From IMG/VR virus record IMGVR_UViG_2700989363_000007: a stretch of 4,835 bases of DNA; one strand, given 5' to 3'. Both the position numbers and the translations under genes were made by a program. Under the pieces are notes generated by a model, which saw only the letters and a list, made by a program, of their open reading frames with translations, was not told the origin of the DNA and did not search any database. Origin of the DNA: a virus. Lineage: Duplodnaviria; Heunggongvirae; Uroviricota; Caudoviricetes. Shown here in pieces: positions 1-4,835 of the stretch (within the stretch, counting starts at the first letter, position 1; every line of letters begins with the position of its first letter).

Positions 1-36
1 CCGGCGGGCTGTCATAACACTGTGTTACCTGGCTAA

Positions 37-636
37 TCAGAATTTATAACCGACACCCACGATGAAACCGTCAGTGCGCCAGTCACCACTGCCGGAGCCT
101 TCATAAGCAATATCAATGGCCACGGATTCGGTCGGGTTAAACTGCACGCCAGCTCCCCACGCCAGAGACGTGTTGCTGTGGCGATCGTCATCACTTCCGG
201 TCAGCACATCGTGCGTTTTCCCCTTGTTGTCAGTTACGCGGAGATAATCCCCGGAGAACGTCGAAACACGGCTGTAAGCCACACCTGCCATCGCATAAGC
301 ACTGAACCATTCATTCACGCGTACAGATGGCCCCGCCATCATGCTGAACCAGCGGTTACGCACTGAATCTTCATGCCAGCGGGTATCGCTGTAATGCGTT
401 TTTTGCTCATCTTTGGCATTGGCATAACTGAATGACGTCACCAGCCCCAGCGTGTCCGTAAACTCATAACGGTATTTCACGTTAATGCCCTTCAGGTCAT
501 CACTGCCTGGCATATCAGTATGGGTCTGAAGATACCCGGCGCTTAGTGTGGACTGATGCTCTGCTGCGCTCGCTGGCGTACCAGCGGCAACCAGCCAGAC
601 TACTGCGGACAGAATAACAGCACATAATTTACGCAT
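37..636 (-). CDS. lom: Outer membrane protein Lom (Ail/Lom/PagC/OmpX family 8-stranded beta-barrel), phage moron gene
   Basis: 199-aa ORF with stop TGA at 37-39 and ATG at 634-636. N-terminus MRKLCAVILSAVVWLVAAGTPASA/AEHQ is a typical Sec signal peptide with an AxA cleavage motif. The mature protein has alternating hydrophobic/aromatic beta-strand patterning and ends in a C-terminal Phe (GYKF), the outer-membrane beta-barrel signature. Sequence closely resembles lambda Lom as I recall it, and the position immediately downstream of J matches lambda gene order. Confidence 0.93.
   Translation of the reverse strand: MRKLCAVILSAVVWLVAAGTPASAAEHQSTLSAGYLQTHTDMPGSDDLKGINVKYRYEFTDTLGLVTSFSYANAKDEQKTHYSDTRWHEDSVRNRWFSMMAGPSVRVNEWFSAYAMAGVAYSRVSTFSGDYLRVTDNKGKTHDVLTGSDDDRHSNTSLAWGAGVQFNPTESVAIDIAYEGSGSGDWRTDGFIVGVGYKF
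565..636 (-). other. Signal peptide coding region of Lom (residues 1-24, predicted cleavage after ASA)
   Basis: Positively charged N-terminus (MRK), hydrophobic core (LCAVILSAVVWLVAA), then small-residue ASA before AEHQ. Cleavage site is predicted by motif only. Confidence 0.6.
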
Positions 637-641
637 AATTA

Positions 642-647
642 CCTCTC
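642..647 (-). promoter_or_regulatory. Shine-Dalgarno sequence for lom
   Basis: Minus strand reads AGCGAGAGGTAATT-ATG. The GAGAGG purine-rich motif sits 5 nt upstream of the lom ATG. Confidence 0.5.
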
Positions 648-657
648 GCTTTTCTGC

Positions 658-684
658 AATAAAAAAGGCACCATTTCTGGTGCC
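658..684 (-). terminator. Rho-independent terminator downstream of J (minus-strand orientation)
   Basis: Minus-strand sequence GGCACCA-GAAA-TGGTGCC is a perfect 7-bp GC-rich stem (plus 667-673 / 678-684) with a GAAA tetraloop, followed immediately by TTTTTTATT (plus 658-666). It lies 20 nt after the J stop codon. On the plus strand the same hairpin is not followed by a T-run, so it is unidirectional. Confidence 0.72.
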
Positions 685-703
685 CGTATCTGGGTTATAA
701 AAT

Positions 704-3700
704 TCAGCTAATCGTGATGCCTGCAGTGGCTTTCTTCATCACAACAACCAGCAAATCGCTGATACTTGCTGTGGGATACCAGCCATTTACCAGCCATGCT
801 GACACCGAAAACTCCAGTGTCATGTGACCGTGACCGGCAGGCATATCAATAACGCCACTGTAAATCAGCGTATTATCCAGCGCGGTACGGTTATAAATTT
901 CAGCACCGTTTTTCCGCACTATCAGACGGCATGAGGAGTAAATATCAGTATGCTCTCTCTCATGCTTAGCGCCACTGAATGCCACAGCCGGAATAACAAT
1001 TTGCCGGTCAAACGGCTGATCGTCATAAACCCTGACGGTAATGGTCCCTGATGGCCACCGCTCCGGTGCCCGGGAGTCACGGGGGAAAGCTTTGCCCACT
1101 GTTTTAACGAGATCGCCTTCAATCTGGTTCGCGGACAGTTTTCCCAGAACCCGACAGTTCTCGTTAATCGTGACGTTGTTGAGCGTCCCGGAGTTCGCAT
1201 TCACGTTACCGCTGATATCGGCATTTTTCGCCGTCAGCCGCCCGTCCGGTGTCAGGGAAAATGCCGGAGGATTACCGCCGCTGGTAATGGTGGGAGCCGT
1301 CAGGCGTTTCAGGAACACGTCGTTCATGAATATCTGATCGCCCTGACCAACAAACATCGGCTTTGTGTTGCCATTCGCAGGATTAATCATCGCAATCCGG
1401 TCAGCAGCCAGAAGCACCTGACTCTGCATACCTGCTGGCGTATTCTCAATACCGGCTCCGATACCCGCAATATAAAGGCGTCCGTCCTTCATCTGCTGCA
1501 GTTTCACGGCCCACATGCTGTTCAGGTTATTATTTGTATCAACCTGAACTTTCTGTATCTGCTGGATTGCCGCGCTCTGATTTTCCAGTTTCTTATTGAC
1601 GGTCTGTGTGATTTCATTGCTGACATCCGTAATGGACGTCCTGATTTCAGCCAGGTCAGGCGCAAGCTGATCGTTATCAATCTGCGTCCACAGCTCCTGA
1701 GCCAGATGTGTTTTCCCGATTTTTTCTTTAAAAAAATTCAGGTAACCTTCCGCATCATCGCTCGCCCGACCGACGGCCTCCACGAATGCCGATTTGCCAA
1801 CGGTATTCACACTGCGGATATAAAAGTAATAATCATGGCCCGGCCTGATATTGATACTGGCGGCTATCCAGTACATCCCCGTGCCAAGATAGCGGGCTGT
1901 GGTTTCAACCTGCCTGATATCGGCAATCCGCTTTTCCGAAAACCAGAACTCAAACTGTACCGTCGGATCATAAACCGCAAGATGCGGCGTGGCGGTTATC
2001 TGAAAATAGCCCGGCGTCAGCTCAATCTGTGACGGCGCTGCCGGTGCGGCAATCCGGAACGATACCGACGCCGGATCGCCCTGCTGTCCCCATGCATTTA
2101 CTGCCCGGACTGTCAGCCTGTAGTTCCCCAGAGCCAGTTGTGTGAAGCGGTAAGTGGTTTCCGTCGTCCGGGCCGTGCTGACCAGCCGCTCACTGCCGTC
2201 ATCCGCTGCCACGGTCAGGCGAAGCATAAAGCTCACCCCCTTCACCACCTTCGGCGTGTCCCAGCGGGCCAGCACCTGGTATTCCCCGCTGTCTGCGGTG
2301 ACTTCGGCGGTCAGATGCTGCACTGCTGGCGGCGTGACACCATTCACCGTGCCGCTCTGGTTACCGTCAAAGTGCGCCCCGTTATCCACGATGGCTTCTT
2401 TCTCCGGTACATGCTGCACTGCAGTGATGGCATACGTACCGTCGTCGTTCTCACGGATACTCACACAGCGGAACAATCGCTGGTGCAGCGTCGGCAGCTT
2501 CAGCCCCCACACGCTGTACTCGGCAACGCCGTCAGGAACCCGGCTCACTTTCACCTTCACGCCGTCGGTGATGGACTGGACCTCCACGCTGACCGGATTG
2601 CCACTTCCGTCAACCAGGCTTATCAGCGTGGTGCCGGAGGATGGCAGCGTGATTTCACGGTCGAGCGTCAGCGTCCGGGTCTGGCTGTTCACCGCCAGCA
2701 CGCGCCCGCCGGTGCTGATACCGGCATAGTCATCATCGCAGATTTCAATGACATCGCCCGGTACATGGCGAAGCCCTTCGGCACCCACGCTGAAGTCCAC
2801 GGTCTGCGTCTCCAGCAGTTCTGTTTTAATCAGCCACAGCCCGGCGCGGTGCGCCTGCCCCCGACTGGTACAGCCAAACGCATCCATCTTTGTGACGTTA
2901 CGACCATAACGGGCAATGGCCTGCGAGTCCTCCACAAGCTCTGTGGCCGCCTCCCAGCCGTTATCCGGGTCAATCCAGTTCACTTCAACGGCATTATGGC
3001 GGTCTTTCAGGGCGCTGAAGCTGTAGCGGAATGGTGCACCATCATCCGGCATCACCACATTACTGCGGTTATAGGTCCACACCTTATCCGATGGTCGGTC
3101 CTGCACGAACGTCAGCGTCTGCCCGTTCCATACCGGCATACAGCGCATCGCCGAGCAGAAATCACTGAGCACATCCCACGCCTTACGTTGTGTGGTCAGG
3201 TAAGCGTTACAGGTGATGCGCGGCTCCGTACCGCCAAAGCCGTCCGGCACCGACTGGTCGCAATTCTGGCCGATGACATACAGCGCCCATTTGTCCACAT
3301 CCGCCGCACCGAGACGTTTCCCCATGCCGTAGCGCGGGTGGGTCAGCATATCCCACAGACACCAGGCCATGTTGTTGCTGTATGACGGTTTAAACGTCCC
3401 GTCCCAGATACCGCTGTATTGCCGCGTCTGCGGGTTATAATTCGACGGCACCTGCAGAATACGCCCGCGAAGATGATAATTACGGCTCACCTGCTGGCTG
3501 CCGAACTGCTCCGAATCCACCTGTACGCCGACCAGTGCCGTGTTCGGGTAGCACTGTTTCACATCGATGATTTCGGTGTATGACGACCAGAGCGTTTTGT
3601 TCTGCAGCTGGTCTGTGGTGCTGTCCGGCGTCATCCTGCGCATCCGGATGTTGAACGGGCGCGGCGGCAGATTATCCACCACTACCGAGGCCAGATACTG

Positions 3701-4183
3701 CGAGGTGGTTTTGCCCTTAATGGTGATGTCTTTTTCCGTCACCCAGCCACCGTTACGCTGTATCTGAACCAGCAGGCGGACTTCCGACGGATTCCGGTCC
3801 CCCTTTGAAGTGGTTTCCACCAGTGCCTGCACACCGAAGGTAAAGCGCAGACGGTCAATGTTTGCCGACGTGATGGTCCGGGTGATCGGCGTGTCGTATT
3901 TCACTTCCGTGCCCAGTACCGTCTCGGAACCTGATGATTCAAATCCCTCCGGCGGTGTCTGTTCCTGCTCACCTGCCCGGAACACCACCGTGACACCGGA
4001 GATGTTAGTATTCCCCTCACTGTCCAGCACCGGTGTACTGTTCAGCAGCACGCTTTTTAATCCATCCACCGGACCTTCAACCGGCCCTTCGCTGATGGCA
4101 TCGATCACACTCAGCAACTGCGTGGACTTCAGGTTGTCCTTTGCTTCGCGCGGGGTATGCCCCTTACTGCTGCCTTTACCCAT
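704..4183 (-). CDS. J: Tail tip host-specificity protein J (central tail fibre, receptor-recognition protein)
   Basis: 1159-aa ORF with ATG at 4181-4183 and stop TGA at 704-706. N-terminus [41 protein letters not shown] and long internal stretches match lambda gpJ as I recall it. Size (lambda J is 1132 aa) and position between I and lom fit. The C-terminal region diverges (see findings). Confidence 0.96.
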
Positions 4184-4205: not shown

Positions 4206-4225
4206 AAACCGCCCGGAGGCGGTTT
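4206..4225 (-). other. GC-rich stem-loop in the I-J intergenic spacer (terminator-like)
   Basis: Plus 4206-4213 AAACCGCC and 4218-4225 GGCGGTTT are perfect inverted repeats around a 4-nt loop. On the minus strand the stem is followed by TTTTGTCGTTTAT, a U-rich tract. It sits between the I stop (4244-4246) and the J start. Confidence 0.4.
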
Positions 4226-4243: not shown

Positions 4244-4835
4244 TCAACGACCAATCACCACAACCTGACCACCGTCCCCCTCGTCTGCCGTGCTGATCTC
4301 CTGAGAGACAACACGTGACCCCACGCGCATTTCACCGTACAGAACAGGCAGAACATTGCCCTGGGCAACCATGTTGTCCAGTGACGAGAAATACGTGTTC
4401 TGCTTACCGTTATCCGTTGTCTGTGTACGGGGAGTTCTGGGTTTAGGGGCCAACATCTGGGCCACACCGCCAAGCACCATACTGGCACCGAGAGAAAACA
4501 GGATGCCGGTCATACCACCGGCCCCAATGGCTGCCCCCCATGCTGCAAGGGTGGCTCCGGCAGTAAAGAATGATCCGGCAATGGCGGCAGCCCCCAGGAC
4601 AATCTGGAATACACCACCTGACTTGGCCCCGGCGACTCTGGGAACAATATGAATCACAGCGCCGTCAGGCAGAGTCTCATGTAACTGCGCCGTTAACCCG
4701 GACGTGCTGACGTCCCGCCCGGCAATCCGTACCTGATACCAGCCGTCGCTCAGTTTCTGACGAAACGCCGGGAGCTGTGTGGCCAGTGCGCGGATGGCTT
4801 CAGCCCCCGTTTTCACACGAAGGTCGATGCGGCGG
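4244..4835 (-). CDS. I: Tail tip assembly protein I, 5'-truncated by the window edge
   Basis: Stop TGA at 4244-4246. Translation ...RRIDLRVKTGAEAIRALATQLPAFRQKLSDGWYQVRIAGRDV...EGDGGQVVVIGR matches the C-terminal ~195 residues of lambda gpI as I recall it. The reading frame stays open to position 4835 (upstream codons give RRIDLR), so the true start is beyond the window. The M at 4816 in the ORF track is an internal GTG (Val) codon, not the start. Confidence 0.93.
   Translation of the reverse strand, partial: RRIDLRVKTGAEAIRALATQLPAFRQKLSDGWYQVRIAGRDVSTSGLTAQLHETLPDGAVIHIVPRVAGAKSGGVFQIVLGAAAIAGSFFTAGATLAAWGAAIGAGGMTGILFSLGASMVLGGVAQMLAPKPRTPRTQTTDNGKQNTYFSSLDNMVAQGNVLPVLYGEMRVGSRVVSQEISTADEGDGGQVVVIGR

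Follow-up and report, generated by a model that had tools for sequence, protein, structure and literature searches.

Is the lom gene of a lambda-like Escherichia coli prophage a virulence gene that is expressed from the repressed prophage, or does its product act on the receptor of the phage that encodes it? This question is raised by the IMG/VR record IMGVR_UViG_2700989363_000007 (Caudoviricetes), of which a stretch of 4,835 nucleotides, referred to here as the window, was analyzed. The genes I, J and lom lie in this order on one strand of the window. An initial annotation, made from the sequence alone, named the last of them as a phage-borne outer membrane protein gene of the Ail/PagC family, a moron and a lysogenic-conversion cargo gene. 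The explanation that we consider best as a whole, with a probability of roughly 0.55, is that of an intact lom cassette of the allele type called A in this study, which would be transcribed by read-through from the late operon and whose product would mask the receptor of its own phage.

Identity of the lom gene

An unbroken open reading frame was found in the list of reading frames of the window minus strand, running from the ATG at 636-634 to the TGA at 39-37 and encoding 199 amino acids, with no frameshift or truncation in the window sequence. Its product matches the Pfam family PF06316 (Ail_Lom) from end to end (residues 1-199 on profile positions 1-199, E = 1.7e-127, 423.3 bits, the cut-off being 23) and is likewise spanned in full (residues 1-199 of 199) by PHROG 108, 'Lom outer membrane protein' (E = 2.3e-107). 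The protein is 100% identical to the RefSeq entry WP_001228252.1, annotated as 'Ail/Lom family outer membrane beta-barrel protein' in E. coli MLI109, and the identical protein was also found at 10 IMG/VR prophage loci. The closest solved chain by sequence is lambda Lom itself (9wso_C, E = 4.6e-50), followed by OmpX and Ail with E values of about 1e-18 to 1e-19.

There is hardly any doubt that the gene is the intact lom of a lambda-like E. coli prophage and that it represents the dominant natural allele. Its initial identification as lom, encoding an outer membrane β-barrel of the Ail/Lom family within a lambdoid tail module, agrees with both family matches, with the Ail/OmpX-like fold described below and with the I-J-lom gene order. 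The two peptides quoted at that time are both present in the translation, HEDSVRNR at residues 88-95 (window 352-375) and TDNKGKTHDVLTGSDDDRHSN at residues 135-155 (172-234). The gene is ordinary and correctly named: it was already annotated, it lies in its canonical place and it belongs to the commonest lom type in E. coli, so that its identity is already known.

Organization and expression of the lom cassette

A 99.7%-identical stretch of E. coli MLI109 carries the genes for the tape-measure protein, M, L, K, I, J, lom and stf in the same order as lambda, and the order K-I-J-lom-stf is shared by lambda and the 99.7%-identical locus L001. Two other loci, L166 in E. ruysiae and L170 in Escherichia sp., were found to lack lom. 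In these, the same terminator hairpin stands after the J stop codon, and the ribosome site and start codon of stf come immediately next, the junction being that of GGTGCCTTTTTTATT with TGTGGAGTGAATATG. Compared with L166 and L170, the window and L001 have about 673 bp inserted at the J-stf junction. The inserted cassette consists of a 21-nt leader, GCAGAAAAGCGAGAGGTAATT, which contains a ribosome-binding site, the lom gene and a 3' region that ends in a strong terminator. This terminator is complete in L001, where AGCCCGCC-GGUUCA-GGCGGGCU is followed by U6 (folding energy -23.6 kcal/mol). The G+C content of lom (53.0%) is not distinct from that of its neighbors, with 56.1% in J and 51.4% in the 3' third of J.

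lom is therefore a presence/absence cassette that carries a terminator, and the strict definition of a moron applies to it in part. The extra DNA at the J-stf junction, lacking in L166 and L170, and the terminator of its own speak for that name, but no promoter was detected and the G+C content is unremarkable. The description as lysogenic-conversion cargo was likewise only partly borne out: the gene is an add-on cassette missing from some related prophages, but again one in which no promoter was detected. A perfect 13-bp palindrome (TAACAC-A-GTGTTA, window 15-27) was also observed between the lom stop codon and the lom terminator. A hairpin in RNA would be too tight here, and the palindrome may be a site of protein binding.

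No sigma-70-like promoter was found in positions 1-1300 of the window on either strand, including the 400 nt 5' of lom, by consensus scans that were also run at relaxed stringency, although a weak or non-canonical promoter could escape such scans. A scan of the window against Rfam found no RNA family. The intrinsic terminator after J (Table 1) is also present in the two lom-less loci, and as only 21 nt separate its tail from the lom ATG, the leader of the cassette offers no room for a promoter. Because no promoter is detectable, the leader is this short and the terminator lies just 5' of the gene, lom would be transcribed mainly by antiterminated read-through of the late operon and would be expressed in the lysogen at a low level at most. 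This fits the strong late expression that has been reported for lambda lom (PMC12366544, PMC9836094).

Predicted structure of Lom

A structural model was built with AlphaFold (AF2) from an alignment of Lom homologues to which OmpX homologues were added. The model has a mean predicted local distance difference test (pLDDT) score of 85 and a predicted template modeling (pTM) score of 0.74. It contains eight strands (residues 29-40, 47-58, 63-81, 86-106, 111-135, 141-166, 172-183 and 186-198) with periplasmic turns at 59-62, 107-110 and 167-171, preceded by a helix (2-18) and a low-confidence linker (19-25) in the signal-peptide region. The membrane topology of OmpX is well established, and the turns of the model agree with those derived independently from the alignment with OmpX and this topology. 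An alternating hydrophobic pattern is seen in seven of the eight strands, and the C-terminus (...GVGYKF) reads as an aromatic β-signal for insertion by the β-barrel assembly machinery (BAM). The top matches of the model in Foldseek are Ail (3qrc, E = 1.4e-17, template modeling score 0.85 on the target) and OmpX (1qj9); solved OmpX and Ail chains align to the window protein only from residue 26-29 onward.

The second and third extracellular loops, L2 (73-96) and L3 (121-157), form long, charged and protruding β-hairpins. Lom of the window is thus predicted to be an eight-stranded outer membrane barrel of the Ail/OmpX kind, with a cleavable Sec signal peptide and with L2 and L3 projecting outward.

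Comparison with lambda Lom and other relatives

Lom of the window and lambda Lom (NP_040601; 9wso chain C) are identical at 94 of 207 positions (45%), so that the initial statement that they differ at multiple positions is true but understated. Identity was found to be 70% in the membrane strands and 32% in all extracellular loops together (Fisher p = 3e-6). L1 is 8 residues shorter than in lambda and shares 30% identity with it, L2 and L3 share 21% and 27% respectively, whereas L4 is 100% identical. The differences had been expected to lie in surface loops, and a topology mapping that placed them in membrane strands instead had been named as the refuting outcome. When this mapping was carried out, the differences were not found in strands rather than loops, and both quoted motifs fall within L2 and L3, so that the topological claim holds. 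It needs to be qualified in that the signal peptide (33%), the periplasmic turns (33%) and strand b3 (30%) also differ from lambda, and in that L4 does not.

The two proteins otherwise have much in common: both match PF06316 and PHROG 108, are encoded between J and stf behind a terminator-like hairpin and have the same type of signal peptide. L4 and the last strand do not differ between them, and identity across the C-terminal third is 80-100%. Within the last 42 codons (158-199, window 37-165), which extend from b6 to the C-terminus and include L4, 33 of 42 residues are identical to lambda Lom. Strand b8 and L4 are 100% identical, and the mature protein outside these codons is about 40% identical. 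This conserved end could be a functional core shared through the BAM signal; alternatively, all Lom types may have it in common as an anchor for recombination.

Yersinia Ail (3qra/3qrc) is the best structural match and belongs to the same Pfam family, being an eight-stranded barrel with protruding hairpins as well. However, its identity to Lom is about 30% and confined to the barrel, the L2 and L3 hairpins are much longer in Lom, and the ligand-binding loop residues of Ail are not conserved; Ail is also chromosomal whereas Lom of the window is phage-borne. E. coli OmpX (1qj8/1qj9) shares the fold and strand register of Lom, and its alignment supplied the membrane topology, but identity is only 36%, the L2 and L3 hairpins of Lom are longer and unrelated in sequence, and the score of Lom against the OmpX equivalog model PRK09408 of NCBIfam (104.9 bits) is below the cut-off of 176. 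Rck and PagC of Salmonella are members of the same Ail/Lom superfamily, but the corresponding equivalog model PRK15240 ('resistance to complement killing'), although the best NCBIfam match (E = 3e-35), reaches 121.5 bits against a cut-off of 258. Since this cut-off is not reached, complement resistance cannot be inferred for Lom of the window. Serum-resistance and invasion roles, which the initial annotation named for the relatives Ail and PagC, are not transferable to this gene from Ail, Rck or PagC, as the equivalog scores are far below their cut-offs and the loops that carry these functions are not conserved.

Lom types, distribution and selection

Three types of Lom were found among the IMG/VR loci: type A (the type of the window, 199 amino acids), type B (207 amino acids, with lambda-like loops) and type C (lambda, 206 amino acids). 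Of 5426 complete E. coli genomes, 4084 (about 75%) contain a match that covers at least 80% of the window lom DNA. Where any match is present, the median copy number per genome is 2 and the maximum is 14. By comparison, lambda lom reaches at least 80% coverage in 94 genomes, with many laboratory or commercial strains among the matches listed. The closest 90% cluster of the window protein has 24,859 member sequences. From the type-A consensus the protein differs at two positions, V99M and G151D.

The ratio of non-synonymous to synonymous substitution rates (dN/dS) among 82 distinct type-A genes is 0.13 in the strands, 0.21 in L1-L3 and 0.11 in L3, with values of 0.11-0.26 for individual hairpins, and no amino-acid change was found in L4. 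The motif HEDSVRNR is nearly all invariant in an alignment of 27 sequences, and the quoted L3 motif has few variable positions among the type-A genes. Variation within type A is instead located in the signal peptide, in L1 and in the first part of L2. Diversifying selection on the Lom loops was rejected, as dN/dS is well below 1 everywhere in these 82 genes. The earlier proposal that the loops are exposed to host and immune selection therefore found no support; what is seen is purifying selection, and the quoted motifs barely vary. Because loop dN/dS is low and these motifs are near-invariant within type A, the loop differences from lambda Lom reflect membership of an old and distinct allele class under purifying selection, not ongoing immune-type diversification. 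Purifying selection of this strength (dN/dS 0.13-0.21) shows that type-A lom is functional.

Several kinds of variant genes were also observed. Database variants of 183, 185, 213 and 215 amino acids (P0007, P0008, P0019, P0027, P0038-P0046, P0057, P0061 and P0067) have exactly 14 or 16 residues deleted or duplicated relative to the 199-residue form. The affected lom codons are 96-118 (window 292-351), and the breakpoints fall between the copies of two short repeats, MAG...MAG and WFS...WFS, with TGGTTCAG occurring twice at a distance of 42 nt in the latter. Such changes would remove or duplicate strand b4 and a turn, and the variants are probably products of slipped-strand pairing or recombination that are likely to be non-functional, or else assembly artefacts. 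Four Loms of 207 amino acids (P0058, P0069, P0072 and P0075) are chimeric, with a long L1 and a signal peptide like those of type B and a type-A body from about residue 49; the L1 of lambda is of the same long kind as that of type B. These chimeras show loop-shuffling recombination inside lom. In three chromosomal loci of Shigella flexneri (L167, L171 and L174), lom is split 3' of J into several short frames, consistent with the decay of lambdoid prophages in Shigella.

Association of Lom types with the receptor-binding domain of J

The J protein encoded directly 5' of lom is 83% identical to lambda J overall, with about 97% identity over residues 1 to about 820 and divergence thereafter. J is a mosaic, and in its C-terminal third (window 707-1700, minus strand) 27 inserted residues and a coiled region of divergent sequence come after about residue 820. 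The C-terminal receptor-binding domain is only 41% identical to the LamB-binding domain of lambda, in contrast to 62% identity to the receptor-domain type B and 55-57% to the gpJ called 'A8'. The A8 gpJ has been deposited together with OmpC (PDB 9wcb; also 9wca, both being entries of OmpC-binding gpJ chimeras) and was experimentally shown to use OmpC (bioRxiv 10.1101/2022.09.30.509847). Since the domain of the window J is nearest to the OmpC-binding type, an OmpC-like receptor, not LamB, is plausible for a phage with this J. The receptor-domain type A was found with three main types of the middle part of J, in 42, 16 and 10 haplotypes. With the preceding stretch of about 200 residues occurring in at least three types among loci of the same domain, a recombination joint lies just 5' of the receptor domain, and this part of J recombines more freely than the domain.

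The types of Lom and of the J receptor domain were tabulated over 111 distinct J-plus-Lom haplotypes, from loci that were sampled by Lom similarity and without phylogenetic correction. Type-A Lom occurs in 86 haplotypes, of which 69 have the J domain type A, 10 have type C, 4 have type B and 3 have other domains. All 19 haplotypes with type-B Lom have the J domain type B, and all six with the lambda type C have the lambda domain, type D. A J-like protein about 44% identical to the receptor domain of lambda was also found at nine loci without lom (L201-L209); these belong to a different phage group and were left out.

Function of Lom

By analogy with lambda Lom, the barrel encoded in the window would bind and mask the outer membrane receptor of its own phage. 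Such masking would lower the number of sister phages lost by adsorption to lysogens, infected cells or debris. The masked receptor would in this case probably not be LamB and may be OmpC or a related porin. Expression of lambda Lom was reported to give strong protection against lambda-vir and not against T7, while OmpX and OmpA gave no protection, and the authors propose that Lom has a role in preventing non-productive adsorption, noting also its high late expression (Cell Host Microbe 2025, PMC12366544). Furthermore, the PDB entry 9wso holds lambda Lom together with a 422-residue LamB construct that is the same as in the gpJ-LamB entry 8xcj. Taken together, the lambda Lom data point to a role at the phage receptor instead of, or besides, lysogenic conversion. 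For the window, masking agrees with the location of lom next to the receptor-binding gene J, with the outward hairpins being the most divergent parts between Lom types, and with the association of Lom types with J receptor-domain types (69/86, 19/19 and 6/6).

Functional analogues of the proposed role exist in other phages. Cor acts on FhuA, as does Llp, and the cor and llp genes both adjoin a receptor-binding gene. Cor of phi80, N15 and HK022 and Llp of T5 resemble the proposed Lom as outer membrane proteins that inactivate the receptor of their own phage. The likeness is one of function only, as Cor and Llp are small lipoproteins and not β-barrels, Lom has no lipobox, and no homology is expected. 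Abstracts of published papers (e.g., PMC9586334) state that T5 Llp binds FhuA.

A number of observations weigh against masking and against expression without an own promoter. The experimental and structural support for masking comes from lambda Lom. Lysogens of lambda are still sensitive to lambda-vir (PMC12366544), and the level of Lom made from the prophage therefore does not exclude the phage. The physical Lom-LamB complex in 9wso is one that we infer from the co-deposition of the two chains. The window Lom has no match at E <= 0.01 among the defence models of PADLOC-DB 2.0. In the literature, the outer membrane localization of Lom and its expression in lysogens and during late infection are documented for lambda and phi24B. 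The sequence of the window does not explain expression in lysogens, which in phi24B was reportedly equal to that on induction. The association with J is also looser than a pairing of types would be: type-A Lom (at least 94% identical) stands behind at least four families of J receptor domain, and identity between some of these families is only 39-42%. In addition, lambda-like loops occur in Lom variants that stand behind the OmpC-type domain (type B) as well as in variants behind a domain that shares 81% identity with that of lambda. Strict one-to-one pairing of Lom type and J receptor type was accordingly rejected, and the pattern that is left could be explained by physical linkage alone, because Lom similarity was the basis on which loci were sampled and only about 70 bp separate the two genes. 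With these points considered, receptor masking as the function of type-A Lom is somewhat short of an even chance. A module in which each Lom type masks through L1-L3 the receptor recognized by the adjacent J, as a cover to its key, with lambda Lom on LamB and type-A Lom on OmpC or a related porin, is an unlikely elaboration of this idea.

As regards the PDB entries, a literature search found no paper describing a Lom-LamB structure, and none accompanying 9wso, 9wca or 9wcb. A structural paper on the function of Lom may be about to appear.

Three other explanations were weighed against receptor masking. In the classical one, lom is a virulence moron of lysogenic conversion, expressed from the repressed prophage, which mediates epithelial adhesion and perhaps serum resistance or invasion and whose loops are shaped by host or immune selection. 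Membership of the Ail/Lom family and the Ail-like fold are in keeping with this, as are the concentration of differences from lambda Lom in the exposed hairpins, the expression of phi24B lom in lysogens, and the adhesion to human buccal cells that lambda Lom is reported to promote and its synthesis in lysogens, as described by papers citing Vica Pacheco 1997 and Reeve & Shaw 1979. The adhesion evidence is, however, a single study from 1997 on the different allele of lambda. The equivalog scores for Rck/PagC and OmpX, together with L2 and L3 hairpins that are longer than and unrelated to the loops of OmpX, leave function not transferable by homology. The loops are under purifying selection with quoted motifs that vary little or not at all, about 75% of complete E. 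coli genomes carry type A whatever their pathotype, and no promoter was found for a gene with a terminator directly 5' of it. We consider the virulence role rather doubtful, with about one chance in four, and masking of the phage's own receptor to be no less probable than the classical role in adhesion.

A helper function in the lytic programme, for example with the holin or spanin in disrupting the outer membrane or releasing progeny and without any binding to a receptor or tissue, would account for the strong expression of lom in the lytic cycle and for its frequent co-transfer with the holin gene, both reported from comparative genomics (PMC9836094). That evidence is purely correlative, though, lom is dispensable in that related prophages do without it, and the LamB co-structure and the protection specific to lambda-vir would be left unexplained, which makes such a function improbable. 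Least probable is that lom persists as a passenger, decaying or neutral, that serves no function at present. Decayed copies in the S. flexneri remnants, the variants with deletions or duplications of 14-16 residues and the absence of lom from some related prophages are what such a passenger would lead one to expect, but the window copy is intact, its protein is found unchanged in many independent genomes, and the dN/dS values of the 82 type-A genes and the unchanged L4 speak for constraint. Receptor masking by an intact and presumably late-expressed lom is therefore retained as the preferred explanation.

Features of the window

The annotated features are listed in Table 1. A further hairpin was observed between I and J (window 4206-4225, minus strand), in which AAACCGCC-UCCG-GGCGGUUU is followed by a U-rich stretch (folding energy -22.9 kcal/mol, z = -3.6). 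It resembles a terminator within the late operon, and Q-modified polymerase presumably transcribes through it.

Table 1. Features annotated in the 4,835-nt window, with their positions and the basis of each assignment.
Feature	Position	Strand	Basis
lom cassette, part inside the window (last ~16 nt of the terminator lie beyond position 1)	1..657	-	junction comparison with L001, L166 and L170
5' arm (AGCCCGCC) of the terminator of lom; its loop, its 3' arm and U6 lie outside the window	3..10	-	full hairpin in L001
lom coding sequence, type-A allele, intact	37..636	-	open reading frame list, PF06316, PHROG 108, WP_001228252.1
Loop L4, residues 182-188, GSGDWRT; identical in lambda Lom; no amino-acid change among sampled type-A genes	73..93	-	alignment
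Extracellular hairpin L3, residues 121-157, tip 136-140; 27% identical to lambda Lom; holds TDNKGKTHDVLTGSDDDRHSN	166..276	-	alignment and AF2 strands 111-135, 141-166
Extracellular hairpin L2, residues 73-96, tip 82-85; 21% identical to lambda Lom; holds HEDSVRNR	349..420	-	alignment and AF2 strands 63-81, 86-106
Extracellular loop L1, residues 39-48 (AF2 loop 41-46); 30% identical to lambda Lom	493..522	-	alignment and AF2
Signal peptide, residues 1-24, MRKLCAVILSAVVWLVAAGTPASA then AE; Sec/signal peptidase I type, A-x-A site, no lipobox cysteine	565..636	-	read from sequence
Ribosome-binding site GAGAGGT, 4 nt 5' of the ATG	641..647	-	read from sequence; conserved in lambda
Intrinsic terminator after J, just 5' of lom, GGGCACCAGAAAUGGUGCCU then U-tract	658..685	-	terminator scan; folding energy -17.1 kcal/mol, z = -2.8
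J, tail-tip attachment/host-specificity protein, 1159 amino acids, directly 5' of lom	704..4183	-	NCBIfam lambda_TipJ 2377 bits, all Pfam J domains
C-terminal receptor-binding domain of J, last 131 amino acids	707..1099	-	sequence comparison
Tail assembly gene I, 5' end cut by the window edge	4244..4835	-	Pfam Lambda_tail_I; gene order

Implications

The discovery value of the gene itself is small, as the exact protein is in RefSeq and is carried by most E. coli genomes, often in several prophages. The textbook Lom of lambda is a rare allele and type A is the natural norm, and functional work on Lom should therefore use type A. The label of a virulence or lysogenic-conversion gene is routinely attached to lom on the strength of its family name alone, whereas the anatomy of the cassette and the Lom/LamB data suggest that it may serve the phage by receptor masking; if this is true, counts of lom would be unfit as virulence markers in genome surveys. 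Should the pairing of a J key with a Lom cover also be true, the commonest 'virulence-family' prophage gene of E. coli would be a device for self-exclusion or progeny protection, and its alleles would report receptor usage.

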